Numbered from the stretch's first letter, positions 3,300-33,607 are shown. The stretch: DNA of 64,000 nucleotides from Escherichia coli (GCF_050320075.1 NZ_CP190018.1); one strand, 5' to 3'. Numbers and translations are program-made. Notes: generated from the sequence alone by a model not told the origin.

Positions 3300-3660
3300 G
3301 GAGAGACTCCGGTTATTATTTACCTCGGTTAACAGCGCACCAGAAACAATAAGTACGATACAAAAGCACCGTATCTTCATTGTGCGGTCCATGCGAAGAC
3401 CGCATCACGACAGCACCACTGGCGATATTGCCGCGATAGCAAGCACTGTGGGGTGTCTGCATTTACGGTCATGGAACATCCTTTCCTAAAGCCAGCGCCC
3501 GTTTGCGAGACGGCGAAAAGGGCCGTCACGAATAATACTCTCATGTTTGAATAATTACTCTGTTTATTATCTTGACATAGCCAGGCATAAAAGAGAGTAT
3601 TTCAACACTGTGGGGTGCCTGCGTTGCTCCAGCAACACAAGTCAACCAGCTGGAAAGGCC
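3300..3660. ncRNA. candidate small RNA locus in the sseB-sseA intergenic region (ryfA-like position); strand and ends uncertain
   Basis: 500-bp non-coding gap with a TTGACA box near 3572, an internal 18-bp repeat (about 3445 and 3606) and a flanking bidirectional terminator; ryfA is recalled to lie between sseA and sseB in K-12. Confidence 0.3.
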
Positions 3661-3722: not shown

Positions 3723-4568
3723 TTATTTCAATGGCTCAACCGGTAAATCTGCCCGTGCGCCCCATTCACTCCATGCGCCGTCGTACAGTTTCACGTTTGG
3801 CACATCCAGCGTCGCGAGTGCCAACAAAACCACGGCTGCCGTTACACCAGAACCGCAACTGACGATAATAGGTTTGTCATAACTTACGCCGCGACCAAAA
3901 AATATCGCATCCAGTTCATCGGTCGTTTTTAGTTCGCCTTCACGTACCAGTTCTGTCCACGGAACGTTAAACGCGCCGGGAATATGTCCGCGACGTAAAC
4001 CTGGGCGAGGTTCATCAACTTCTGCGTTAAAACGTGCAGCCGGGCGGGCATCAATAATTTGCGCCGTATTTTCATGGCTTGCCAATAACACATCGGTGAC
4101 TTTCACCACGGCTTCAGGATTAAACGTGGCGTTAAACTCTCCTTCCGGCAGCTCTACTGCACCTTCTTCTAACAGCAGATCATCGCGCTGCCAGCCTGCA
4201 AGTCCACCCCCCAGAATCGACACTTTCTCTACACCAAAGGTGCGCAGCATCCACCATGCTCGTGGGGCTGAGAAAAGATTACCTTCGTCATAGACAATCA
4301 GGTGCTTATCCTGGTTAACGCCTAACTCACGCATCGCCACGGCGAACGTTTCCGGGCGCGGCAGCATGTGCGGAAGCGGGGAAGTGTGATCAGAAAGCGC
4401 TTCGATATCAAAAAACACTGCGCCGGGAATATGTCCATTCAGATACTCCTGAGCAACGTTACGATCTTCCTGTCCAGGCGACGCCATGCGGGCATCGATA
4501 ATCTGAATTTCCGGGTCATCAATATGTTCGGCGAGCCAGTCGGCTCCTACAAACCATGTCGTGGACAT
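3723..4568 (-). CDS. sseA: 3-mercaptopyruvate sulfurtransferase (rhodanese family)
   Basis: ORF 3723-4727 on minus strand; start placed at the ATG giving MSTTWFVGADW (281 aa); tandem rhodanese domains with active-site CGSGVTA. Confidence 0.9.
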   Translation of the reverse strand: MSTTWFVGADWLAEHIDDPEIQIIDARMASPGQEDRNVAQEYLNGHIPGAVFFDIEALSDHTSPLPHMLPRPETFAVAMRELGVNQDKHLIVYDEGNLFSAPRAWWMLRTFGVEKVSILGGGLAGWQRDDLLLEEGAVELPEGEFNATFNPEAVVKVTDVLLASHENTAQIIDARPAARFNAEVDEPRPGLRRGHIPGAFNVPWTELVREGELKTTDELDAIFFGRGVSYDKPIIVSCGSGVTAAVVLLALATLDVPNVKLYDGAWSEWGARADLPVEPLK

Positions 4569-4774
4569 AGGCATCTCCATTTTTGCCGGGGTTAGGCTAA
4601 ATTGTCGGATGTTTAGTGAAATGCAACAAGCAAAAGAGGCTGATTTGGCTGTCTGAGCCACAATTCTCACTAAAATTCGGATTGTATGGGCGTGATACTG
4701 AATTACATAACGTAAATTCTCACGCATAATAATTATTCGACGTTGCTAACGGGCCATTGTGGCAGGGATGAAAA

Positions 4775-7700
4775 ATGAAAAAGTTACGCGTAGCCGCCTG
4801 CATGCTAATGCTGGCGCTGGCAGGGTGCGACAACAACGATAACGCGCCAACAGCGGTGAAAAAAGATGCGCCTTCTGAAGTTACTAAAGCGGCCTCTTCA
4901 GAAAACGTGAGTTCAGCAAAACTTTCCGCGCCGGAGCGACAAAAACTGGCCCAACAGAGTGCCGGTAAGGCGCTGACATTGCTGGATCTCTCTGAAGTTC
5001 AACTTGATGGCGCAGCCACGCTGGTGCTGACGTTCTCCATTCCTCTCGACCCGGATCAGGATTTCTCACGCGTTATCCATGTCGTCGATAAGAAAAGCGG
5101 CAAAGTGGATGGTGCCTGGGAGCTGTCAGATAATCTTAAAGAGTTGCGTTTACGCCACCTCGAACCGAAACGTGATTTGATCGTCACTATTGGCAAGGAG
5201 GTCAAAGCACTCAACAACGCAACCTTCAGTAAAGATTACGAAAAAACTATAACTACCCGCGATATCCAACCCAGCGTCGGTTTTGCCAGCCGTGGTTCGT
5301 TGTTACCTGGTAAAGTTATTGAAGGGCTGCCGGTAATGGCGCTCAACGTTAACAATGTTGATGTTAACTTCTTCCGTGTGAAGCCCGAATCTCTGCCTGC
5401 ATTCATTAGCCAATGGGAATACCGCAATTCGCTGGCGAACTGGCAGTCTGAAAAACTGCTGCAGATGGCGGATCTGGTTTATACCGGACGGTTTGATCTC
5501 AATCCTGCGCGTAACACCCGTGAAAAATTATTGCTGCCGCTGGGTGATATCAAACCGCTTCAGCAGGCAGGCGTGTATCTGGCTGTGATGAATCAGGCTG
5601 GACGTTACGATTACAGTAATCCCGCGACGCTGTTTACGTTAAGTGATATCGGCGTTTCAGCTCACCGTTATCACAATCGTCTGGATATCTTTACCCAAAG
5701 TCTGGAAAACGGCGCGGCCCAGCAAGGAATACAAGTCTCTTTATTAAATGAGAAAGGGCAGACTCTGACTCAGGCAACCAGTGATGCTCAGGGGCATGTG
5801 CAGCTGGAAAATGATAAAAACGCGGCATTACTGCTGGCGCGTAAAGACGGTCAGACAACGCTACTCGATTTAAAACTTCCGGCGCTGGACTTAGCAGAAT
5901 TTAACATTGCTGGCGCGCCAGGCTATAGCAAACAGTTTTTCATGTTTGGCCCGCGCGATCTTTATCGCCCTGGTGAAACAGTCATCCTCAATGGTTTATT
6001 GCGTGATGCAGATGGAAAAGCATTGCCCGATCAACCCATCAAGTTAGACGTGATTAAACCCGACGGGCAGGTACTCAGGAGCGTCGTTAGTCAGCCGGAG
6101 AATGGCCTCTACCACTTTACCTGGCCACTCGATAGCAATGCGGCAACCGGTATGTGGCATATTCGCGCTAACACGGGCGATAACCAGTACCGGATGTGGG
6201 ATTTCCACGTCGAAGATTTTATGCCAGAGCGCATGGCGCTGAATCTGACTGGTGAGAAAACCCCGCTAACGCCGAAAGATGAAGTGAGATTTTCCGTGGT
6301 GGGGTACTACCTGTATGGTGCGCCTGCTAATGGTAATACTTTGCAAGGGCAACTTTTCCTGCGCCCACTGCGTGAAGCTGTGTCAGCCTTACCTGGTTTC
6401 GAATTCGGCGATATAGCTGCCGAAAATCTTTCCCGCACGCTGGATGAAGTTCAGTTGACGCTGGATGATAAAGGGCGTGGCGAAGTTTCTACAGAAAGCC
6501 AGTGGAAGGAAACGCATTCCCCATTACAGGTTATTTTCCAGGGTAGTTTGTTGGAATCGGGCGGTCGCCCGGTGACGCGCCGCGCTGAGCAGGCTATCTG
6601 GCCTGCCGATGCATTGCCGGGGATCCGTCCGCAGTTCGCCTCGAAATCGGTTTACGATTATCGCACTGACAGCACGGTGAAACAGCCCATTGTTGATGAA
6701 GGCAGTAACGCCGCTTTTGACATCGTTTATAGCGATGCGCAAGGCGTGAAAAAAGCCGTGTCGGGCTTGCAGGTGCGCCTGATTCGCGAACGCCGCGATT
6801 ACTACTGGAACTGGTCAGAAGATGAAGGCTGGCAATCACAGTTTGATCAAAAAGATCTGATTGAAAATGAACAAACTCTGGATCTGAAAGCGGACGAAAC
6901 CGGCAAGGTCAGTTTCCCGGTAGAGTGGGGCGCTTATCGTCTGGAAGTCAAAGCGCCGAATGAAGCGGTCAGTAGTGTGCGTTTCTGGGCTGGCTATAGC
7001 TGGCAGGACAACAGCGACGGGAGCGGCGCAGTGCGTCCGGACCGTGTCACGCTGAAACTGGATAAAGCCAGTTATCGCCCTGGCGACACCATTAAGTTGC
7101 ATATCGCCGCGCCAACGGCGGGTAAAGGTTATGCGATGGTCGAGTCCAGTGAAGGGCCGCTGTGGTGGCAAGAGATTGATGTTCCGGCTCAAGGGCTGGA
7201 TCTGACGATTCCGGTCGATAAAACCTGGAATCGTCATGATCTGTATTTAAGTACGCTGGTGGTACGTCCTGGCGATAAATCTCGCTCTGCGACGCCAAAA
7301 CGCGCAGTTGGGGTGTTGCATCTGCCGCTTGGCGATGAAAACCGTCGTCTCGATCTGGCGCTGGAAACCCCCACCAAAATGCGCCCCAATCAGCCATTAA
7401 CCGTGAAAATTAAAGCCAGCAATAAAAATGGTGAGATGCCAAAACAGGTGAATGTGCTGGTGTCTGCCGTTGATAGCGGTGTGCTGAATATTACTGATTA
7501 CGTTACCCCCGATCCGTGGCAGGCGTTCTTTGGTCAGAAACGCTATGGTGCAGACATTTACGATATTTACGGTCAGGTCATTGAAGGTCAGGGGCGTCTG
7601 GCAGCTCTGCGTTTTGGTGGCGATGGTGATGAGCTGAAACGTGGTGGTAAACCGCCGGTCAATCACGTCAATATTGTCGCGCAGCAGGCGCTGCCGGTAA

Positions 7701-24526: not shown

Positions 24527-26104
24527 ATGACGGAAAACATTCATAAGCATCGCATCCTCATTCTGGACTTCGGTTCTCAGTATACTCAACTGGTTGCGCG
24601 CCGCGTGCGTGAGCTGGGCGTTTACTGCGAACTGTGGGCGTGGGATGTGACAGAAGCACAAATTCGTGACTTCAATCCAAGCGGCATTATTCTTTCCGGC
24701 GGCCCGGAAAGCACCACCGAAGAAAACAGCCCGCGTGCGCCGCAGTATGTCTTTGAAGCAGGCGTACCGGTATTCGGCGTTTGCTATGGCATGCAGACCA
24801 TGGCAATGCAGTTGGGCGGTCACGTTGAAGCCTCTAACGAACGTGAATTTGGCTACGCGCAGGTTGAAGTCGTAAACGACAGCGCACTGGTTCGCGGTAT
24901 TGAAGATGCTCTGACCGCAGACGGTAAACCTCTGCTCGATGTCTGGATGAGCCACGGCGATAAAGTTACCGCTATCCCGTCCGACTTCGTCACCGTAGCC
25001 AGCACCGAAAGCTGCCCGTTTGCCATTATGGCTAACGAAGAAAAACGCTTCTATGGCGTACAGTTCCACCCGGAAGTGACTCACACCCGCCAGGGTATGC
25101 GCATGCTGGAGCGTTTTGTGCGTGATATCTGCCAGTGTGAAGCCCTGTGGACGCCAGCGAAAATTATCGACGATGCTGTAACTCGCATCCGCGAGCAGGT
25201 AGGCGACGATAAAGTCATCCTCGGCCTCTCTGGTGGTGTGGATTCCTCCGTAACCGCAATGCTGCTGCACCGCGCTATCGGTAAAAACCTGACTTGCGTA
25301 TTCGTCGACAACGGCCTGCTGCGTCTCAACGAAGCAGAGCAGGTTCTGGATATGTTTGGCGATCACTTTGGTCTCAATATTGTTCACGTTCCGGCAGAAG
25401 ATCGCTTCCTGTCAGCGCTGGCTGGCGAAAACGATCCGGAAGCAAAACGTAAAATCATCGGGCGCGTTTTCGTTGAAGTATTCGATGAAGAAGCGCTGAA
25501 ACTGGAAGACGTGAAGTGGCTGGCGCAGGGTACTATCTACCCTGACGTTATCGAATCTGCGGCGTCTGCAACCGGTAAAGCACACGTCATCAAATCTCAC
25601 CACAACGTGGGCGGCCTGCCGAAAGAGATGAAGATGGGCCTGGTTGAACCGCTGAAAGAGCTGTTCAAAGACGAAGTGCGTAAGATTGGTCTGGAGCTGG
25701 GCCTGCCGTACGACATGCTGTACCGTCACCCGTTCCCGGGACCAGGCCTTGGCGTTCGTGTTCTGGGTGAAGTGAAGAAAGAGTATTGTGACCTGCTGCG
25801 CCGTGCTGACGCCATCTTCATTGAAGAACTGCGTAAAGCGGACCTGTACGACAAAGTCAGCCAGGCATTCACCGTCTTCCTGCCGGTACGTTCCGTTGGC
25901 GTAATGGGCGATGGTCGTAAGTATGACTGGGTTGTTTCTCTGCGTGCTGTCGAAACCATCGACTTTATGACCGCACACTGGGCGCATCTGCCGTACGATT
26001 TCCTCGGTCGCGTTTCCAACCGCATTATCAATGAAGTGAACGGTATTTCCCGCGTGGTGTATGACATCAGCGGCAAGCCACCAGCTACCATTGAGTGGGA
26101 ATGA
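24527..26104 (+). CDS. guaA: GMP synthase (glutamine-hydrolysing)
   Basis: 525-aa ORF with GATase catalytic cysteine (GVCYGMQ) and ATP-PPase motif SGGVDSS; C-terminus ...PATIEWE intact. Confidence 0.95.
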
Positions 26105-26149
26105 TTAACAGCTAACTCATAGCAAATCATTCCTATTCAGATGCCAACT

Positions 26150-26183
26150 CAACCCTCTGTTTTTGCAGAGGGTTTTTGTTTTT
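26150..26183 (+). terminator. intrinsic terminator after guaA
   Basis: Hairpin aaccctctgtttttgcagagggtt followed by tttgttttt. Confidence 0.7.
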
Positions 26184-26296
26184 ATGTATTCATTTCTATT
26201 CACTCTACACCATATTTTTCGGCGGTACAGGTGACGGTATTACCTTAAAGGTATACTCTCATACCGTCATGAAAATGGTTTCTATACGGGTGAATT

Positions 26297-27547
26297 GTGC
26301 TTACCGATACAAAATTAAAAAACCTCAAGCCGCAGGACAAACTGTACAAGGTCTCCGATCGTGACGGGCTGTATGTAGCTGTGCTTACGTCAGGCACGGT
26401 CTCATTTCGTTATGACTACCGTATCAACGGTCGCCGCGAAACACTGGTAATCGGGCAGTATGGGCGTGACGGTATCAGCCTGGCAGAAGCGCGGGAAGAA
26501 CTGATTGCTGCAAAGAAGCTGCTTAAAGCAGGCCAGTCACCGGCTGCGGCTAAACGTGACGGTATCAAAAAGATTCGTGGTGCCGAAACGTTTGCGGTAC
26601 ATACCGACAGTTATATGAAACACGTCATCCTGGCTGAAAGTACCCGCGCAATGAAGCAGGCAGTGATCGACCGTGACATACTTCCGGTTCTTGGCAACAA
26701 AATGATGGCTGAAATTACCACATCGATGGTTCGTGATTTGTGTGACCGGATTGTCGAACGCGGTGGCCGGGCAACAGCAGTGCAGGCCAGGGAGATCATC
26801 AGCAGCGTATACCATCACGCCAATGACCGTGGTCATGGTTTGTTTAATCCTGCGGCTGACATTAAGCCTTCGTCTATCGCCATATTTAAACCACGAGAGC
26901 GAACACTGACACCAGAAGAAATTGGCCTGTTCTTCCGCACGTTGGATGCCATTGGTGCTATGGGCACTATGAAAATGGCTTTAAAACTGGTGCTTATCAC
27001 TATGGTTCGTAAGGGCGAATTCACCAATGCAACGTGGGATGAAATAGATTTTAAAAAATGGACATGGACAATTCCTTCAGACCGCATGAAGGGAAGCCGG
27101 GCGCATGTTATTTACCTGCCTAAACAGGCTCAGGATATATTGGTCGGGTTGCAGATGTGCGCTGGTGGAAGTGAATATCTGGTTCCTGGTCGTTACAATT
27201 TCCGGAAGCCATTATCTAATGCCGCGCTGAACTCTCTGATCGACAGAACGGTGAAAATAATAAATGAAGATGGTGAGCATATTCAGGATTTCACCGTACA
27301 CGATATGCGCCGTACAGCCAGTACGTTGTTGCATGAGGCTGGTTATCCTTCAGACTGGATTGAAAAGGCTCTGGCACATGAGCAGAAAGGTGTGCGCGCC
27401 GTATATAACAAAGCGGAATACGCCAGACAGCGCGCCTACATGTTGCAGCAGTGGGCCGATATGATAGATTCCTGGATTAACGGGGAGCATACGGATCTGA
27501 TTCCGTTCTCCCCGTCGAAGTTTGAGAAGTGGATGGCGAGGGAATAA
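26297..27547 (+). CDS. int: tyrosine integrase (P4-type, arm-binding N-terminal domain)
   Basis: 416-aa ORF; N-terminus TDTKLKNLKPQDKLYKVSDRDGLYVAV; catalytic HxxR (HDMRRT) and C-terminal Tyr region; lies at the prophage-host junction. Confidence 0.9.
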   Translation: MLTDTKLKNLKPQDKLYKVSDRDGLYVAVLTSGTVSFRYDYRINGRRETLVIGQYGRDGISLAEAREELIAAKKLLKAGQSPAAAKRDGIKKIRGAETFAVHTDSYMKHVILAESTRAMKQAVIDRDILPVLGNKMMAEITTSMVRDLCDRIVERGGRATAVQAREIISSVYHHANDRGHGLFNPAADIKPSSIAIFKPRERTLTPEEIGLFFRTLDAIGAMGTMKMALKLVLITMVRKGEFTNATWDEIDFKKWTWTIPSDRMKGSRAHVIYLPKQAQDILVGLQMCAGGSEYLVPGRYNFRKPLSNAALNSLIDRTVKIINEDGEHIQDFTVHDMRRTASTLLHEAGYPSDWIEKALAHEQKGVRAVYNKAEYARQRAYMLQQWADMIDSWINGEHTDLIPFSPSKFEKWMARE

Positions 27548-27550
27548 CGT

Positions 27551-27745
27551 TTAATTATTCTGCTGATTTTCTTCCATCTCGGCTTCTGCTGCCAGTGATT
27601 CAATTTTATCTGTGAATATTGCTGACAGTGTTGCAAATTCAGCATCAGTGACAGCGGGAATTGGAACAAACCTGATCCCGCTGTGTGCAAGCATGTTTGC
27701 AGTTTCAAGGCATTTCCTTAAATCTGCTGGTGATGCCCTGTTCAT
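27551..27745 (-). CDS. hypothetical small phage protein (64 aa)
   Basis: ATG overlaps the stop of the upstream methyltransferase gene (ATGA), consistent with translational coupling. Confidence 0.45.
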   Translation of the reverse strand: MNRASPADLRKCLETANMLAHSGIRFVPIPAVTDAEFATLSAIFTDKIESLAAEAEMEENQQNN

Positions 27746-28404
27746 GCTGCACGCTCCCGCCCCTGGTTGTCTGTTGGTGACAGCGGAGCATTGCTGAATG
27801 CATTTGTTAATCTGGCAATATCCAACGCGTATCCAGGGTGTAGTTGCACTGCCGGGTCTTCGCACTGATTACCCCAAACATCGAAACCATGAGACGACTG
27901 GCGGGCGAACAGTTCAATGCGAGAAACATCGCCTAACAATTGCACAAGTTTTTCACGAACGATATCTGGTTTTCTTGAATGCTCAAGCCGCGGTGCGGTA
28001 AATGACTGAACGATCCCTGCATTAATGCGCGTAGGTAGTTTTCCCTTTACTGCAAACAGGCAATCTTCACTATTGGCGCGAGTCATGTGACCCATACCCA
28101 TAACCAGTTTATCTGGTTGTCGACTACCACATTTTATCCACGTGAATCCCTTCATGGTCATCAGACGGAATCCCCAGGCCTCAACAACTTTTAGTGCTTC
28201 GAGTGGTTGTGTTGGCACCCACCACATGGCCAACAGACAGTTTTCATCGGCCAAATCCCACACAGGAAGGCGGCAGATATCCAGCACACTCATAACCGGA
28301 TATTTAAAACCGGCACCGCGATTACCATCTGCGGCTTTGTCCCGGTATACCCAGGGTGGATCTGCATAGATTAGTGTGTATTTCTTAGTCATAAACCACC
28401 CCAC
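27742..28404 (-). CDS. MT-A70-like DNA N6-adenine methyltransferase
   Basis: Protein begins ...MTKKYTLIYADPPWVY; DPPW is the catalytic motif of MT-A70/N6-adenine methyltransferases; start may be the second Met (28392). Confidence 0.8.
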   Translation of the reverse strand: MGWFMTKKYTLIYADPPWVYRDKAADGNRGAGFKYPVMSVLDICRLPVWDLADENCLLAMWWVPTQPLEALKVVEAWGFRLMTMKGFTWIKCGSRQPDKLVMGMGHMTRANSEDCLFAVKGKLPTRINAGIVQSFTAPRLEHSRKPDIVREKLVQLLGDVSRIELFARQSSHGFDVWGNQCEDPAVQLHPGYALDIARLTNAFSNAPLSPTDNQGRERAA

Positions 28405-28684
28405 AACATCCTATGCCGCTATAGTCGCCACGGCGAAGGCCGTTACCTTTTGTGATACATTGGTCCCTGCGAACCGCGATCCTTGCACGCTCAACATCAC
28501 CAGAAGCAACATCCATACACTGAAGCCAAAGGTGAGCGGCAATGCGGAACTGCCCTTTTTTCTCTCTTTCAATCGCGCGTTTTTCGATCTCTATCGCCGC
28601 AGGAGTAACGGCGACAATCTTTGACGGACTGCGCATTGAAACCTTGTTCATGTGATATTTTTCAAGTCGGCTTAACTTTCTCAC
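28385..28684 (-). CDS. hypothetical small protein, possibly a small regulator; start uncertain
   Basis: Minus-strand ORF in the early leftward operon, ending just inside the methyltransferase start. Confidence 0.4.
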   Translation of the reverse strand: MRKLSRLEKYHMNKVSMRSPSKIVAVTPAAIEIEKRAIEREKKGQFRIAAHLWLQCMDVASGDVERARIAVRRDQCITKGNGLRRGDYSGIGCCGVVYD

Positions 28685-28793
28685 TTAATCCAACCCTCTC
28701 TGAAAATTAATGCCAGCAGATAAAGCCATGCTGAAACAGAGGCCAGGAATAAGTACCATCCTGACCATTTGCTCCAGTGCCTTAGCAGCACAC

Positions 28794-29042
28794 TCATGCC
28801 GCGTTGCTCACGGGACGATATACACGTTGCTGAACAGGAGGTTTTTTACCCTGGAACTCTGCCGGGCTTGCTGCCTGACGTTCATCAAGCCAACGCTCAA
28901 CTTCATCACGGTTCCATGCGCAGCGTTTATCGGTGATATACCAGCGTTTAGGAAATTCCCCTGCGCGCTCCATACGGTCGATAGTGCTCCATGACAGTGG
29001 AACCACCGCCAGGAGTTCCTTCTTACCTAATGCACCTTTCAT
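28794..29042 (-). CDS. AlpA-like HTH regulator / excisionase family protein
   Basis: 82-aa protein with the pattern ELLAVVPLSWSTIDRMERAGEFPKRWYI...WNRDEVERWL typical of the AlpA prophage regulator fold. Confidence 0.6.
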   Translation of the reverse strand: MKGALGKKELLAVVPLSWSTIDRMERAGEFPKRWYITDKRCAWNRDEVERWLDERQAASPAEFQGKKPPVQQRVYRPVSNAA

Positions 29043-29091
29043 AAATACCTCTCTTGGTTGCAGTGCGGCGCGCGTGGCGCCGCGGTGGTGG

Positions 29092-30033
29092 TTACATAGA
29101 TGTTTCGTTTAATTCTTCCCGACGAACGCTGTAAACGTCGGTGGCTTTTGCCAGCAGTTCGTCATCATCTGAAAGTTTTTGTGCAATGTATTTGTAAGCC
29201 TTATCCAGTTCGGAGACAGTGCTGTAATTCATCGCTGCGCTGGTAAAGGCCATCAGCATTTCTTCTGGATCACGGCTGTCCGATTTACGCGTTTGCTCAT
29301 CAGGCTTTTTCGCTGGTTTAGCGTTGATCAGACTGTTCATTCCCGCAGCAGTGGTCGTTTGCGGAGTAATGTCTCGCTCAACGCGCGGTGCCGTTTCCTG
29401 TAATTCGTCTGGGGTGTAGACGCCCATGATTACGTCAGGACAGTGCAGGCGAGACCAGCGTTTTGTCGCAAGGTATGCGAGTTGTTGTTTCGGATCACTG
29501 GCCCAAAGTGTGGAGTTTCTTACCTGTGCTTGAGACAGCATTAACTCAAGCACTCGAGGTTGATCCTCGCCCTTCATGGTTGCCCATACGCGAACACCGC
29601 AGCCTTCTTCGTCTTTTAGAGTCCAGCCTGGTGCGATATATGGATTGCCGTTTTTGGATGTTTTCTCAACAAACTTACCGATCACGCGTTCCCACGGCCC
29701 GAACCACTCGTAGTTGATGCGATCTTTTGTTGGCGACATCGTTGAGATAACTGCGTTTACTAATTGGGCTTCATAACCTAGCGTGCCGTTCACAACATGG
29801 GTTTTCTGAGCCACGGCAAACGGGTTCATTCCCCACTGCGCAGCCTGCATTGCCACGGCCATGCAATCAGCTGGTTTCCCGGCGAGGTGCGCCGGTACCG
29901 TTACGCGGCTTTGCGCCATTACCTCGGCGAATTTCATCAGTTGGTTCAAGCCGTCTGGGCTGAAAATAGTTGCAGCAGTTCCAGCGATTGCTGTGTCTAC
30001 TGGTGCGTTGATGTTTGCGATGTCGTTGCTCAT
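29092..30033 (-). CDS. RecT-family single-strand annealing recombinase
   Basis: ORF 29092-30060; start placed at the Met directly following the stop of the upstream exonuclease gene; RecT-like sequence (...GTLGYEAQLVNAVISTMSP...). Confidence 0.75.
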   Translation of the reverse strand: MSNDIANINAPVDTAIAGTAATIFSPDGLNQLMKFAEVMAQSRVTVPAHLAGKPADCMAVAMQAAQWGMNPFAVAQKTHVVNGTLGYEAQLVNAVISTMSPTKDRINYEWFGPWERVIGKFVEKTSKNGNPYIAPGWTLKDEEGCGVRVWATMKGEDQPRVLELMLSQAQVRNSTLWASDPKQQLAYLATKRWSRLHCPDVIMGVYTPDELQETAPRVERDITPQTTTAAGMNSLINAKPAKKPDEQTRKSDSRDPEEMLMAFTSAAMNYSTVSELDKAYKYIAQKLSDDDELLAKATDVYSVRREELNETSM

Positions 30034-30851
30034 ATGTACATATCCTGTTTGCGTGCCCACTCAGGGCGTTTAATGATTTCCACACCGCCCCATTCATCAT
30101 TGATGCGGCATTCGTGATAGGTATTCAGATCCCGGCGGAACAGAGCGTGCCCGGCATCGACATCCTGCGCATCCAGCTCGAACACGCGTACCGGATACCG
30201 ACCACAATCAATGCTTTCGCTCACGGCAAGAAAGAAAAAACCATGCGGCTGACCAGTAACCCTCATTGCGCCTTCGCGGTACATTGCGTCCTGCACGTGG
30301 TAGCGGAATTCCTCGATGTGGCGTGCAAAACGGTCCATATCTGCAACCTTTTTCACGTCGACGATCACGTTGTGCTCGTTCAGCCATTTGTCTGGACGAA
30401 TTCGGCACAACTCCCCCGTCTCTTCATCGTTCCAGTACATTGATGCTTCGCAGTAACCAGGTGCTTCCAGCATCCAGCGTGCCGCCGGGTGAGCCATTGC
30501 GCTATCACGCATCAGCTCCAGTTTCCGCCACTGCTCGGCATCAAGTACCGTAATCCCCATATCCGCCACATCACGAAGAAATTCCTCTTCGTCAGCTTTA
30601 CCTTGTTTCGTCCGACGATCGAATTTCGGTGAAACAATGAAGCGTTTGTCGAACTCTCCAGGCTCCAGAAGCAGACAGTGCAATGCGGTTCCCATATCCA
30701 GTGCAGACTTTTTCTCTTCGTCTTCTGGTGCTGCCTGAACCCATTTAAGAAGCGCCGGATTCTTGGCAACCATGTCCAGTTGCGACTTACTCACGCCGTC
30801 ACCGGCGTGGTAGTCTTCGTTGCTGATGTCGAAATAAATTCCCGGTTTCAT
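30030..30851 (-). CDS. PD-(D/E)XK exonuclease (RecE/YqaJ-like recombination exonuclease)
   Basis: 273-aa protein MKPGIYFDISNEDYHAGDGVSKSQLD...; pairs with the downstream RecT as a RecET-like module. Confidence 0.7.
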   Translation of the reverse strand: MKPGIYFDISNEDYHAGDGVSKSQLDMVAKNPALLKWVQAAPEDEEKKSALDMGTALHCLLLEPGEFDKRFIVSPKFDRRTKQGKADEEEFLRDVADMGITVLDAEQWRKLELMRDSAMAHPAARWMLEAPGYCEASMYWNDEETGELCRIRPDKWLNEHNVIVDVKKVADMDRFARHIEEFRYHVQDAMYREGAMRVTGQPHGFFFLAVSESIDCGRYPVRVFELDAQDVDAGHALFRRDLNTYHECRINDEWGGVEIIKRPEWARKQDMYI

Positions 30852-31147
30852 GCCGCGTCCCTCTGTCCATCAAGCTGATCCGCCAGATCCCAGCGGGCGA
30901 TAATTGCCATTGCCTCTCGCCGATAGGCATCCATCAGTTCTTCGAACTCAGGGCTGTCTTTAGCAGCCTCCAGTACTTCCTGGCGAACGCCTTTAACTGT
31001 TACAACGTCGAAAGTTGATGCCAGTTGATGAAGCCGGATACTCTCAATCAGTTCAACTTGTCGGTCATATAGCTGTTCTGACAGACGGTAGTCCTTGTCG
31101 AATGCCAGCATGATTTTTTGAAGATTTTTCTGCTGATTAACGTTCAT
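30848..31147 (-). CDS. hypothetical phage early protein
   Basis: ORF 30848-31162; the ATG at 31147 sits 2 nt after the stop of the upstream small ORF. Confidence 0.45.
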   Translation of the reverse strand: MNVNQQKNLQKIMLAFDKDYRLSEQLYDRQVELIESIRLHQLASTFDVVTVKGVRQEVLEAAKDSPEFEELMDAYRREAMAIIARWDLADQLDGQRDAA

Positions 31148-31149
31148 TA

Positions 31150-31302
31150 TCAGCCCTCCCATATCTCGTTATCGTTGGCCACATCGCGAGCTTCTTTGCT
31201 GACGAAAGCCCACTTAATGCCTTCCTGTAAGGTGCGGAACTTCCAGCTCATGAATCCGCATGCAGTAACGCAGTACCAACCGTTGATGATTTTCCACTGC
31301 AT
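31150..31302 (-). CDS. small Cys/Trp-rich ORF (50 aa), first gene of the leftward early operon
   Basis: Manually translated: MQWKIINGWYCVTACGFMSWKFRTLQEGIKWAFVSKEARDVANDNEIWEG; GAGG ribosome-binding site upstream; below the ORF-track length cutoff. Confidence 0.35.
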   Translation of the reverse strand: MQWKIINGWYCVTACGFMSWKFRTLQEGIKWAFVSKEARDVANDNEIWEG

Positions 31303-31409
31303 AACTTGTTACCTCGGTCTGTTACCGTTGAGGTAATAATTATGCGTATATGGTTTGATGTCAATAGATATGAGTTAAAAAAATTACCCGTTAGGTAATC
31401 GAATAGGCA

Positions 31410-31435
31410 ATAAAAAAGCCGCCATAAGGCGGCTT
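31410..31435 (-). terminator. intrinsic terminator after the repressor gene
   Basis: Hairpin gccgccataaggcggc followed on the minus strand by a U-run. Confidence 0.6.
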
Positions 31436-31455
31436 ACTTACTGAAAAATATGGTT

Positions 31456-32040
31456 TTATTGTTTGTTTTTTTCGTTCTGGTTGATGACAAATTCAATGTA
31501 ACTTTCGATCTTTGCTTTCTCGGTTTCGGGTAACAATGCGTAGCGCGAGCGATCATAGTTGATGGTCGCAGGGTCGTGCGGGTGAATCAGTAATTCATAG
31601 CCGTGACGCCCGAATGCGGATGCAACATTCTCCAGGGTGGAAATGGAAACGCTGACCTCATTGTTTAACAGGCGGCTGATTGTCACCTGGGCTACGCCGG
31701 ATGCGCGGTGAAGTTTTCCCTGTGTTGAAAGGTCGCGGCTTTCGCTCATCCAGCGTTCCAGGTTGTGAGCCGCCAGCTGGCCAATGTCGCTTGGGCCGAC
31801 AGGCTGAAAACCTTCCTGAGAAAGCGAGCGATCGATATCAAGCCAGTTACGGGGTTTATTGGCGGCAGCTTCAATTTTTCGCGCAACCTGATCGCCGATA
31901 ACCTTCTTACCAAGAGCCCAGCGGTTTACCAGATTTGCCTGAGTTCCAAGTTTTTCAGCCATCCGCGTCTGAACACCATTGAATTCACGGTCGATCAAGT
32001 CGTTGAGATTTTGCCTGCGGACGTCCTGGATACTTTTCAT
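31456..32040 (-). CDS. prophage repressor candidate (CI-like), tandem HTH domains, no recognisable S24 peptidase domain
   Basis: 194-aa protein; HTH-like segments QTRMAEKLGTQANLVNRWALGKK and LHRASGVAQVTISRLLNNEVSVSISTLENVASAFG; divergent from a Cro-like gene across an operator-rich gap. Confidence 0.65.
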   Translation of the reverse strand: MKSIQDVRRQNLNDLIDREFNGVQTRMAEKLGTQANLVNRWALGKKVIGDQVARKIEAAANKPRNWLDIDRSLSQEGFQPVGPSDIGQLAAHNLERWMSESRDLSTQGKLHRASGVAQVTISRLLNNEVSVSISTLENVASAFGRHGYELLIHPHDPATINYDRSRYALLPETEKAKIESYIEFVINQNEKNKQ

Positions 32041-32194
32041 TTTCTGGAAAATCGCCTCATATATGAATCAGTAGATGATTCAATTTAAAGCAATATTACC
32101 CAACAGGTAAATGCACCTCATGGGTAACTATCCTTGATTTTTGTTACCTTATGGGTGAATATTTATTATCTGAAATAAATATCAGGCAATAGCT
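32041..32194. promoter_or_regulatory. divergent repressor/cro control region with three palindromic operator-like sites
   Basis: TTACC-caaca-GGTAA (32096-32110), gCACC-tcatg-GGTAA (32113-32127), TTACC-ttatg-GGTGA (32144-32158) between the divergent genes. Confidence 0.55.
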
Positions 32195-32425
32195 ATGAGC
32201 GATAACGGACATTTCGATTTCAAAAAGCACTGGCTTGCACTTACTCCGGATGAGCGTGAAGCCTTCGCACAGGAAGCCGGAACGACGAGTCACTATATCC
32301 AGACTCACTTAACAGGTAAGCGCAAAATGCCAGGTAAAGTATTGATGAATGGGCTTTTTAAAGCCTGTAAAACAAGACAATGGCTGCGCTCAAAAGCAGA
32401 ACTGGCATACTTCTTCTACTCATGA
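32195..32425 (+). CDS. Cro/CII-like small HTH regulator
   Basis: 76-aa ORF directly across the operator region from the repressor; HTH-like segment AQEAGTTSHYIQTHLTGKRK. Confidence 0.5.
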   Translation: MSDNGHFDFKKHWLALTPDEREAFAQEAGTTSHYIQTHLTGKRKMPGKVLMNGLFKACKTRQWLRSKAELAYFFYS

Positions 32426-32575
32426 TATCCAGCTACAACCCTCTGTAGACCGCCACCCGGCGGTCTTTTCATATCTATTCGTACCTCAAAGGTAATAAAA
32501 AACCAAATATGGTTGATATTTTTTTTGTGTCAGCACAAAATGACCGTAATCCCAATACTAATAACAGGGCTTACC

Positions 32576-32776
32576 ATGGAAATCATTACACGTATTGATG
32601 CCGCAAAGCGCGGACTTAAACGCTACTACACCGGAAAAACATGTAAGCACGGACATGACAGTGAACGCTGGGTTTACAACGGACACTGTGTTGAGTGCAC
32701 CATGGAATCAAACCGTCGTATCAGGGCAGAGATTAAGCAGATCATGATTAATTCCTCCCCACAACATTCAAGCTGA
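32576..32776 (+). CDS. hypothetical zinc-ribbon protein
   Basis: ORF 32513-32776 starts with a TTG; ATG 32576 gives MEIITRIDAAKRG... with a CKHGH...CVEC metal-binding pattern. Confidence 0.4.
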   Translation: MEIITRIDAAKRGLKRYYTGKTCKHGHDSERWVYNGHCVECTMESNRRIRAEIKQIMINSSPQHSS

Positions 32777-32791
32777 TAGCGGAGATTAATC

Positions 32792-33607
32792 ATGAGCAGA
32801 CATGCAACAGATTGGGCCTGGGAGACAGATCCAGGTAGCTCATCATTAAAGCTCATACTGCTCTCGATGGCTGACAGAGCCGATGAATATAACCTCTGCT
32901 ACCCCAGCATAGAACGCCTCGTTAAAGACACTTGCCTGAATAAAAAAACCGTGCAGGCCGGGCTTATATCGCTCATGAAAATGGGGCTTATTTCAGATAC
33001 CGGAGAGAGAAAGGGAGCGACAAAAAGAGTGCGGGTTTTCTCTCTTAATATAACCAAAAACGGGAACATTAAAGGCAACCGGGAAGGGGGTAATGAACCC
33101 GAAATCGGTAATGTTACCGAAAACGGGAATATACCCAAAAACGGGATGTTGAATGATCCCAAAAACGGGATGTTGAATGATCCCAAAAACGGGATCCAGA
33201 ACCAGTCATATAACCAGTCATTTAACCAAGAGAGGGAGAGCAGGACAAAAAGCGGGGATTCTGTGCCTCATGACCCCGGAGCAAACAACGCCGTGATGAA
33301 TAACTTTGTTCCTCCTGGTGGGCCAGGGCAATTAGGCAAATTTGTCATGCATGAACAATGGCAGCCATCAGATGACTTTCTTCGGAAAAGCTCATTGCAG
33401 GGGATCTACCTGGACAGTCTGCCAACGGCACAGGAACTTGCAGAGTTCAGAATTTACTGGATGGCTGAGGGTAAGGCATACCATCAGGCACAGTGGGAGC
33501 AGAAGCTGGCAAGGCGGCTGCAGATTAGCAGACAGAAGCAATCAACATTACCTGATAACAACGTTCCGCACTGGAACAGCCCTGAAGCATGGGAGGATTT
33601 CTTGTGA
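32792..33607 (+). CDS. replication initiator, lambda O-like (N-terminal winged-HTH, iteron-encoded linker, DnaT-like C-terminal region)
   Basis: 271-aa ORF; tandem DNA repeats inside the gene encode a low-complexity linker (PKNGMLNDPKNGMLNDPKNG), as in lambda O; followed by a P-like gene. Confidence 0.65.
   Translation: MSRHATDWAWETDPGSSSLKLILLSMADRADEYNLCYPSIERLVKDTCLNKKTVQAGLISLMKMGLISDTGERKGATKRVRVFSLNITKNGNIKGNREGGNEPEIGNVTENGNIPKNGMLNDPKNGMLNDPKNGIQNQSYNQSFNQERESRTKSGDSVPHDPGANNAVMNNFVPPGGPGQLGKFVMHEQWQPSDDFLRKSSLQGIYLDSLPTAQELAEFRIYWMAEGKAYHQAQWEQKLARRLQISRQKQSTLPDNNVPHWNSPEAWEDFL
33054..33225. repeat. iteron cluster (candidate replication origin) inside the O-like gene
   Basis: Five copies of CC(A/G)AAAACGGGA (about 33054, 33117, 33134, 33158, 33182), the last three as exact 24-bp tandem units, followed by a doubled aaccagtcat. 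Confidence 0.6.

Follow-up and report, generated by a model that had tools for sequence, protein, structure and literature searches.

The recombination operons most readily compared with the locus reported here are those of the Rac prophage of Escherichia coli K-12, of phage lambda, and of phages phiV10 and epsilon15. In Rac, as in the present locus, an exonuclease gene (recE) is followed by an overlapping gene of the RecT family, and several small ORFs (kilR, ydaE, racC) lie upstream in the early-left operon. The lambda Red genes likewise belong to a repressor-controlled leftward operon, which comprises a small protein (Kil), a nuclease-inhibitor slot (Gam), and an exonuclease with its annealing protein. 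Bet and RecT are members of one annealing-protein superfamily. Proteins directed against RecBCD belong to several sequence types, namely Gam, GamL, Abc2 and MuGam.

We analysed a 64,000-nucleotide stretch of E. coli DNA (NZ_CP190018.1; "the window"), which contains an operon of this kind. Over 2.46 kb, the operon stretch is 100% identical in DNA sequence to Escherichia phage EC.W1-9, and it is 98.5% identical to phiV10 over the same length. The annotated gene order (repressor, small ORF, 99-residue ORF, exonuclease, RecT, AlpA) is common to EC.W1-9, phiV10 and epsilon15, and is also found in the annotations of Tyrion, BUCT554, BUCT711, PAT1 and SPN1S. We read the locus as a repressor-controlled early-left RecET-type recombination operon carried by a phiV10/epsilon15-like (Uetakevirus) prophage that is inserted beside guaA, and assign this reading a probability of about 80%. 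Deposited phage genomes already contain each of the four genes, so the module is a known one, real but ordinary.

Layout and control of the operon

The operon occupies positions 29092-31302, the interval delimited in the first-pass annotation, and all of its features are on the minus strand. It contains four tightly coupled cistrons, encoding proteins of 50, 99, 273 and 313 residues. The small ORF, the exonuclease and RecT had been recognised from the start; the 99-residue gene had been omitted, so that there are four cistrons and not three. As read from the sequence, the junctions in operon order are a 2-nt gap (TGA-TA-ATG) followed by two ATGA overlaps. The 50-codon ORF (31150..31302) is indeed the first cistron and has a good Shine-Dalgarno sequence (GAGGT, 31311..31315) 8 nt before its ATG; the gene that follows after the 2-nt gap is the 99-residue ORF (orf99), whose own Shine-Dalgarno sequence (GGAGGG) falls within the final codons of the small ORF.

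The small ORF lies directly 3' of a predicted repressor-controlled promoter. A sigma-70-type early-left promoter is predicted at 31336..31364 (TTGACA-17 nt-AATTAT) from a 10/12 match to the consensus, and its -35 hexamer TTGACA is invariant among six aligned phages. It is bracketed by two repressor operators, both exact matches to the palindrome TTACC-N5-GGTAA. The distal operator (31384..31398), just 5' of the -35 hexamer, aligns with sites that the epsilon15 record marks as bound by the repressor, and the proximal one (31322..31336), which overlaps the -10/transcription start region, is conserved in the alignment. The window contains 15 TTACC-N5-GGTAA sites where 1.0 would be expected, and none of 100 shuffled sequences reached this number. 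The prophage repressor itself, a protein with two HTH motifs (PF01381, E=1.2e-9), is encoded on the same strand at 31456..32040; for the homologous gp38, the epsilon15 record mentions that HHpred matched it to 5D50, a structure of the SPC32H repressor. A terminator belonging to the repressor gene is predicted upstream of the operon at 31416-31435. Downstream of RecT, the next gene (28794..29042, minus strand) encodes an AlpA-family excisionase or regulator (PF05930, E=3.1e-5; phrog_66, E=2e-16). With this arrangement, departure of the two-HTH repressor from both operators would release a single mRNA from the bracketed promoter, and the four cistrons would be translated from it as a coupled chain.

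The exonuclease, RecT and the gene upstream of them

The third cistron (30030..30851) encodes a predicted 273-residue 5'-3' exonuclease of the PD-(D/E)XK superfamily. A profile search matched it to PF12684 (PDDEXK-like DUF3799) with E=9.5e-23, and residues 12-268 match the crystal structure of the RecE nuclease domain (PDB 3H4R) with E=9.4e-78. Sequence identity to residues 595-862 of Rac RecE is 48.5%, and His58, Asp154, Asp165 and Lys167 align without gaps with RecE His652, Asp748, Asp759 and Lys761. The latter are the catalytic residues of RecE, as reportedly established by Chang and Julin in 2001 and by Zhang, Xing and Bell in 2009. The NCBIfam equivalog model for full-length exodeoxyribonuclease VIII (NF007259) gave 311.7 bits against a cutoff of 1269 bits, with only profile positions 606-873 being covered. 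By these alignments, the protein consists of no more than the nuclease domain and lacks the N-terminal part of about 600 residues present in Rac RecE. The YqaJ/lambda Exo family (PF09588) gave no match at E<=0.01; of the two families initially considered, RecE and YqaJ, the exonuclease thus belongs to the first.

The fourth cistron (29092..30033) encodes a predicted single-strand annealing protein of 313 residues. It matches the RecT family PF03837 with E=2.1e-44 (151.9 bits against a cutoff of 24) over profile positions 2-188 of 198, as well as phrog_561 (E=1.2e-146); an NCBIfam search and a phmmer search of the PDB gave no match for this protein. Its ATG overlaps the stop codon of the exonuclease gene, and the identical start is annotated in phage EC.W1-9. 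The description of the two genes as a tightly, translationally coupled RecET-like pair is thus borne out, the profile searches supporting both family assignments. If the two proteins act like their relatives, the RecE-type protein would resect the 5' strand at double-strand ends, leaving a 3' single strand for RecT to coat and anneal. The pair would then carry out recombination and repair independently of RecA while the phage replicates, in the manner of Rac RecET and lambda Red.

The second cistron, orf99 (30848..31147), encodes an acidic helical protein of 99 residues directly upstream of the exonuclease. It matches phrog_856 over its entire length (positions 1-99 of 99, E=5e-55) and corresponds to epsilon15 gp36 and PhiV10p38. 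The position of the gene is what makes it informative. In one sister locus (L020) the same position, directly upstream of the exonuclease, is taken by Gam (PF06064, E=3.6e-12), and in another (L022) by a phi80-type GamL (PF28165), a documented anti-RecBCD type (PMC12315714). Elsewhere, Gam is located directly upstream of a Bet/RecT-type annealing gene in SEN34, PhiR30_1, PhiR5_2 and Dewey, and in PhiR5_2 and several Stx phages the neighbour on the other side of Gam is annotated as exodeoxyribonuclease VIII. Recombination genes with Gam beside them thus include those of the RecE type.

Profile-profile comparison points weakly in the same direction. Aligned with hhalign against a Gam alignment, the orf99 family gave 87.8% with a broad set of sequences and 50.8% with a core set, far above the shuffled (<=2.3%) and reversed controls. 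Given its location in the Gam/GamL slot and this weak similarity, we consider orf99 a candidate RecBCD inhibitor that most likely plays the role of Gam. It would then protect linear phage DNA and recombination intermediates by blocking host RecBCD.

A serious, if somewhat less probable, alternative is that orf99 is no analogue of Gam and encodes an unrelated helical protein, such as a regulator or scaffold, which merely shares the position. This would agree with the failure of more direct searches: orf99 and 16 scanned family members gave no match to PF06064 or any other Pfam family at E<=10, neither the single sequence (phmmer) nor a profile matched any PDB entry, GamS (2UUZ) included, and Foldseek found nothing at E<=0.001 in the PDB or BFVD. 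The AF2 model of orf99 is weak (pLDDT 68.7). The hhalign result also depends on which Gam sequences are used. When the L020 Gam, which occupies the slot itself, was left out of the Gam alignment, the value for the core set dropped to 13.5%, and lambda Gam alone gave 5.6%, aligned to a different segment; a scan of IMG/VR detected no close relative of the L020 Gam. Against an unrelated protein stand the exact equivalence of the slot to the one in which sister phages carry true Gam and GamL, the consistency of the 51-88% hhalign values, and the likeness of orf99 and Gam in length and acidity.

The 50-residue first cistron

The small ORF had been described as unannotated, which holds only for the window as supplied: PhiV10p39, epsilon15 gp37 and WP_001198620.1 are all entered as "hypothetical protein". 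Its product (MQWKIINGWYCVTACGFMSWKFRTLQEGIKWAFVSKEARDVANDNEIWEG) matches phrog_898 over positions 1-50 of 50 (E=1.9e-38). With five Trp and two Cys residues, the protein in the window may be called Cys/Trp-rich, but richness in Cys is not a trait of the family, as both residues are lost in distant homologues. For the same reason, the idea that the Cys pair forms a metal site or a disulphide was discarded.

Over codons 1-25, comparison with six relatives revealed 6.5-10 synonymous and 1-4.5 non-synonymous differences, corresponding to dN/dS values of 0.009-0.098. The first 25 residues are nearly invariant while third codon positions vary freely, and Gly8, Thr13, Trp31, Phe33 and Ala38 are unchanged even in homologues of 36% overall identity; conservation is poor in the C-terminal third. 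The sequence pattern thus identifies the small ORF as a genuine protein gene under strong purifying selection, and its conservation, on which the first-pass annotation had staked its account of this ORF, is confirmed at the protein level. Two other explanations of the conserved stretch were rejected. For an RNA element in place of, or overlapping, the small ORF, positions 27500-33500 gave no Rfam match at E<=1, and an antisense ORF annotated in phage Tyrion is not open in distant relatives, the selection signal being in the sense frame.

The small ORF could in principle serve mainly as a translated leader, which opens the mRNA and brings ribosomes to orf99 and the genes beyond, its peptide having no target. 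The placement of the orf99 Shine-Dalgarno sequence, the close junction (a 2-nt gap in the window, 4-nt overlaps in distant relatives), the invariable first position and the weakly conserved C-terminal third would all suit such a device. Mere coupling, though, has no need of a near-invariant N-terminal half with free third positions, nor of the five residues retained down to 36% identity, and no attenuator or terminator was found after the small ORF, nor any Rfam match. We regard a leader function as very unlikely.

About 10% of complete E. coli genomes carry the gene. A search of 1.84 billion representatives returned 18 matches, and all those whose context was examined show the same architecture; in all relatives examined, the small ORF is the first gene after the repressor. 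An exonuclease and RecT pair was found within about 1.5 kb of it in all 77 evaluable IMG/VR loci and in 8 phage genomes. At more distant loci the pair follows in 8 of 11 cases; the remaining three contigs stop short of the nuclease. An identical small ORF occurs in 80 IMG/VR loci, where the pair behind it includes a RecE-type exonuclease in 62 and a YqaJ-type exonuclease in 15; the latter also replaces the RecE-type gene in epsilon15.

This constant linkage could equally mean that the small ORF serves recombination. It might encode a dedicated accessory subunit that loads or modulates the exonuclease, RecT or the Gam-like protein, as its translational coupling to the module and the presence of the pair in every locus with enough sequence would allow. 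We think this improbable. The identical 50-residue protein is paired with two non-homologous types of exonuclease, with RecT proteins that are only 65-100% identical, and with three different proteins in the Gam slot; given this variety, a specific physical partner within the module is unlikely, and the linkage would follow just as well from a genome architecture that is fixed in one phage lineage. Our best guess is that the small ORF is not part of the nuclease/annealase machinery.

What the protein does instead is suggested mainly by analogy. Searches of Pfam, NCBIfam, PADLOC and PDB sequences gave no meaningful match. A PDB match to the designed protein "Bagel" (E=1.7e-4) was treated as spurious, because it is the sum of eight repeats of a 15-residue motif contributing about 1.4 bits each. 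An AF2 model built from a 19-sequence alignment shows a single long helix, but is weak (pLDDT 56.4) and uninformative; the sequences themselves suggest a small soluble protein with a β-hairpin-rich N-terminal half and a C-terminal helix. A membrane peptide was ruled out, given that the most hydrophobic 19-residue segment has a Kyte-Doolittle mean of 0.57 and that homologues have Lys, His, Asp and Asn there.

The first-pass annotation had likened the small ORF to Kil and other host-takeover proteins. As far as position is concerned the analogy holds: kil is located just upstream of gam in lambda, phiES15, SEN34 and PhiR30_1, and the small ORF adjoins the gene in the Gam slot. The sizes are also close (50 residues compared to 47 in lambda Kil), and the small ORF would be the first gene expressed from the derepressed early promoter. 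In sequence the analogy fails. Comparisons of the small ORF with Kil of lambda, phiES15, SEN34 and Dewey, with Rac KilR, with cIII of lambda and Dewey, and with Ral gave hhalign values of at most 1.1%; those for the Kil families (lambda Kil, KilR, and Kil of phiES15, SEN34 and Dewey) were 0.1-0.4%, and Pfam gave no match. In some relatives, moreover, a gene of 326-348 codons intervenes between the small ORF and the Gam slot. Since the Kil families are mutually unrelated, the argument for a Kil-type factor, such as one that inhibits FtsZ or cell division, is a positional one, and we judge such a factor unlikely.

The wider comparison with early-left proteins was also negative, hhalign values for the small-ORF family being at most 6% against lambda Kil, cIII, Ral, orf28, orf60a, orf61 and orf63, and against KilR, YdaE, YdaF, YdaG and RalR of Rac and cIII of Dewey. 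The value of 6% was obtained with RalR over residues 4-29 of the small ORF, where the two share a resemblance (CG-x5-F-x-T-x2-E-[AG]-I-x-W) that we treat as only a lead. None of 19 members of the small-ORF family matched the Lar/RalR family PF14354, and when the four-Cys zinc ribbon was looked for, the small ORF proved to lack the first CxxC knuckle of the Lar type, its own two Cys not being conserved. Only two Lar proteins occur among the loci examined. Of two IMG/VR queries for diverse Lar relatives, one found no match and the other only copies that are 98-100% identical.

As a best guess from these analogies, the small ORF encodes an early effector of the Kil, cIII or Ral class, a lineage-specific protein that would bind a target of host or phage origin soon after derepression. 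It is a strongly constrained orphan and the predicted first product of a derepressed prophage promoter. By virtue of its location in the Gam slot, orf99 is the more informative of the two accessory genes, and it may extend the set of anti-RecBCD sequence types. A combined reading, in which orf99 is a third, highly divergent type of Gam-like RecBCD inhibitor and the small ORF an early effector or regulator, so far unrecognised and specific to this lineage, whose small fold and target would both be new, is tentative and, taken as a whole, rather doubtful. The overall importance of the locus is limited, as the module is of the textbook RecET/Red-like kind and GenBank phage records already contain this very sequence. 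Nevertheless, a natural "minimal RecE" with its own RecT and a possible substitute for Gam could make a compact recombineering cassette.

Comparison with known systems

Compared with Rac, the exonuclease of the window is much shorter (273 residues, the nuclease domain alone, against 866 in RecE). The two RecT proteins have no similarity detectable by BLASTP, although both belong to PF03837, and RacC, YdaE and KilR are not similar to the 99-residue or 50-residue proteins of the window. Compared with lambda Red, the order of nuclease and annealase is reversed, and the exonuclease is of the RecE type and not of the lambda Exo/YqaJ type. orf99 is at best a very distant relative of Gam, and neither Kil nor cIII is related to the small ORF. 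No gene for an N-like antiterminator precedes the small ORF, whose own position we take to be that occupied in lambda by N, the first gene of pL.

Both phi80 GamL and lambda Gam are proteins of about 95 residues found at the exact position of orf99 in sister prophages. Lambda Gam is acidic, as is orf99, and the Gam structure is helical like orf99. With no direct HMM match to either, orf99 (phrog_856) constitutes a third sequence type in this slot.

The closest correspondence is with phiV10 (PhiV10p37-p39) and epsilon15 (gp34-gp37). Epsilon15 differs in that an exonuclease of the YqaJ/lambda-Exo type and a RecT of 340 residues replace the RecE-type pair. In the phiV10 record, RecE and RecT form one fusion ORF of 586 residues, due to one extra A in a run of A residues 20 nt before the exonuclease stop codon; the window, like 60 of 63 related loci, has separate genes for the 273-residue exonuclease and RecT. 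In both phages, the genes, their order, and the layout of operators and promoter are as in the window.

Operon layout and predicted repressor control

The module comprises four genes, all on the minus strand: the small ORF (31150-31302, 50 aa), orf99 (30848-31147, 99 aa), an exonuclease gene (30030-30851, 273 aa) and recT (29092-30033, 313 aa), as read from the ORF list and the sequence. The same sources bear out the coordinates of the first-pass annotation, its 2-nt gap and its adjacent exonuclease stop and RecT start; its RecT, exonuclease and 50-aa ORF all stand, but it omitted the 99-aa gene between the small ORF and the exonuclease. The small ORF was rightly described as the first gene of the operon with a good Shine-Dalgarno sequence: GAGGT lies 8 nt ahead of its ATG, and it is the first cistron after the repressor. 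Its stop codon is followed after 2 nt by the ATG of orf99, whose own Shine-Dalgarno sequence (GGAGGG) sits inside the final small-ORF codons. The orf99/exonuclease and exonuclease/RecT junctions are ATGA overlaps.

A two-HTH repressor gene (31456-32040, terminator at 31416-31435) flanks the promoter region opposite the small ORF. Between the two genes lies a candidate promoter, TTGACA-17-AATTAT, flanked by exact TTACC-N5-GGTAA palindromes at 31384-31398 and 31322-31336, which align with annotated repressor binding sites of the epsilon15 record. The upstream promoter and operator palindromes thus predict an early-left operon under repressor control, with the small ORF as its first cistron. Allowing at most one mismatch, the window contains 15 such palindromes (10855, 26240, 31322, 31384, 32096, 32144, 32481, 34427, 34489, 38082, 38100, 41248, 58878, 59932 and 60313) against 1.0 expected by chance. 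All but one (14/15) lie within the prophage or at its left edge, spread beyond the immunity region, a pattern suggesting that many promoters across the phage genome are under repressor control.

A strong terminator-like hairpin (32447-32466, plus strand; 8 pairs, 6 GC) lies directly 3' of the 76-aa cro-position gene (32195-32425). It is followed by an operator-like site (32481-32495) and a weak promoter-like site, so a separate repressor-controlled promoter may serve the replication genes. The window lacks a 70-nt leader that precedes the small ORF in epsilon15, PAT1 and BUCT711 (columns about 184-254 of the upstream-region alignment); this leader includes a CCAC...GTGG stem-loop and, immediately ahead of the small-ORF Shine-Dalgarno sequence, a third operator.

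Provenance and the recombination genes

Phage homology begins near window position 26,090, beside guaA-side host genes, and runs to the window end; the integrase (26297-27547) is near the left prophage end (26090-26300). This location agrees with reports that phiV10 and ZX5 attach at the 3' end of guaA, and with the guaA site reported for this phage group (PMC9782041). Over 2.46 kb the module region matches Escherichia phage EC.W1-9 at 100% identity and phiV10 at 98.5%. The order repressor, small ORF, orf99, exonuclease, RecT, AlpA is shared with phiV10, epsilon15, Tyrion, BUCT554, BUCT711, PAT1, SPN1S and two Klebsiella prophages. The small ORF had been called unannotated, but it is PhiV10p39, epsilon15 gp37 and, in RefSeq E. 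coli genomes, WP_001198620.1 ('hypothetical protein'); orf99 is PhiV10p38 and epsilon15 gp36. Small-ORF DNA occurs in 557 of 5,426 complete E. coli genomes. With genes, order and WP_001198620.1 in deposited records, the finding is already in databases, RecE and RecT under identical functional labels. It is an ordinary but correct observation of a known phage module, and what remains of interest is the roles of the two conserved hypothetical proteins.

RecT matches PF03837 (E=2.1e-44), and the exonuclease matches PF12684 (PDDEXK-like DUF3799; E=9.5e-23) and the RecE nuclease-domain structure 3H4R (E=9.4e-78). Against the exonuclease VIII equivalog NF007259, the exonuclease aligns with the C-terminal 268 positions and scores 311.7 bits, the whole-protein cutoff being 1269 bits. 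It aligns ungapped with Rac RecE residues 595-862 (48.5% identity), and its H58, D154, D165 and K167 coincide with RecE H652, D748, D759 and K761, which we take from the RecE literature to be the catalytic residues. The proposed RecET-like pairing of RecT with a PD-(D/E)XK exonuclease is upheld, but the YqaJ alternative is not, as the profile search gave no YqaJ match for this exonuclease. By homology, the pair is assigned as a RecE-type exonuclease (nuclease domain only) plus RecT.

In the phiV10 record (NC_007804.2) PhiV10p37 is annotated as a 586-aa RecE-RecT 'fusion protein'. A single additional A in an A-run that lies 20 nt ahead of the exonuclease stop (about 4030-4050 of the compared phiV10 locus, window 30040-30060) accounts for the fusion. 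A separate 273-aa exonuclease is present in 60 of 63 related loci and the fusion only in the phiV10 record; it is likely a sequencing error or private mutation. In SPN1S, an inserted HNH endonuclease gene (4759-5169) separates the exonuclease gene from recT.

The small ORF as a protein

Residues 1-25 are almost invariant across seven sequences from different phages, with third-position variation at nine of these codons and dN/dS of 0.009-0.098 (Nei-Gojobori, window versus six others). Conservation is thus at the protein level, and the selection pattern identifies the small ORF as a real protein gene. A word-indexed search returned 28 clusters, every named source being Enterobacteriaceae, and only 18 proteins emerged when 1.84 billion representatives were searched exhaustively with a profile, indicating a narrow family. 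Divergent members (36-57% identical) keep G8, T13, W31, F33 and A38. Because they lack both cysteines, the supposed Cys-rich character is incidental. The ordered pattern x-F-x-N-G-x-Y-x-V-T, G-L-V-S-W-K-F, x-E-A-I-x-W-A-F-x-T-K-x-A suggests, as a reading rather than a computation, two or three short strands and then a helix; the AF2 pLDDT is just 56.4. Searches of Pfam, NCBIfam, PADLOC, PDB and Rfam gave zero matches. The likeness to kil-type proteins holds for position, as an early-left first cistron, but not for sequence: hhalign showed no relationship to Kil, KilR, cIII, Ral, YdaE, YdaF or YdaG, the top value being 6% (RalR/Lar).

In the Tyrion record, a 70-aa opposite-strand ORF (3405-3617), probably a mis-call, is annotated across the small-ORF locus and the conserved 50-aa gene left out. 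Three family-search proteins (P0089, P0090, P0092) are chimeric; P0089 and P0090 join the first 15-17 small-ORF residues to the C-terminus of orf99 and of a downstream adenine methyltransferase, respectively. Such chimeras indicate that in some prophages the early-left operon has undergone deletion.

In every distant locus the small ORF is the first gene past the two-HTH repressor, with exonuclease and RecT downstream in 8 of 11, all those whose contig reaches far enough. Between it and the exonuclease lie a 95-aa Gam (L020), a 326-aa coiled-coil protein and 94-aa GamL (L022), a 348-aa protein and 101-aa orf99 relative (L015, L017, L019) or a 94-aa orf99 relative (L021); in L018 a 550-aa RecE-type protein follows with no intervening gene. 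Of 80 IMG/VR loci whose small ORF is identical, 62 carry the RecE-type pair and 15 (L029, L038, L044 and 12 others; about 4451-6382) a YqaJ-type 299-aa exonuclease and 340-aa RecT, as in epsilon15, with orf99 93-100% identical. This is a clean mosaic exchange of the nuclease/annealase cassette. Given these varied neighbours, the small protein does not track any one type of nuclease, annealase or Gam, which argues against a specific physical partner within the module and favours a separate early function.

The 326-348-aa proteins that some relatives insert after the small ORF and ahead of the Gam-slot gene (L015 5150-6196; L019 5153-6199; L022 3249-4229; L013 5146-5805) are Ala/Glu/Arg-rich coiled coils with no Pfam family.

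orf99 and the proposed recombination route

The Gam slot, directly upstream of the exonuclease and occupied here by orf99, holds PF06064 Gam (E=3.6e-12) or GamL in sister phages. GamL is the anti-RecBCD protein of phi80; together with Gam, Abc2 and MuGam it makes up the four anti-RecBCD types known from lambdoid Rec modules (PMC12315714). A direct HMM search gave no match of orf99 to Gam. Compared profile to profile (hhalign) with a Gam alignment of seven sequences, the broad orf99 family set scored a probability of 87.8% (P 3.3e-6) and the core family 50.8% (P 1.6e-4), falling to 13.5% (P 2.1e-3) when the in-slot Gam of L020 was removed. Thirty column-shuffled Gam alignments gave the core family at most 2.3% and the reversed alignment 0.3%; all real comparisons aligned the same C-terminal helices. 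The AF2 model is a helical hairpin (pLDDT 68.7) with no Foldseek match. We put a Gam-like anti-RecBCD role for orf99 at slightly better than even odds, with position as the main argument and homology putative.

Upon derepression the promoter would fire and yield a single mRNA. The 50-aa protein would be a small early effector, and orf99 would shield DNA ends from RecBCD. Resection by the RecE domain, then annealing by RecT, would give RecA-independent recombination, a proposed resection and annealing route like those of Rac RecET and lambda Red.
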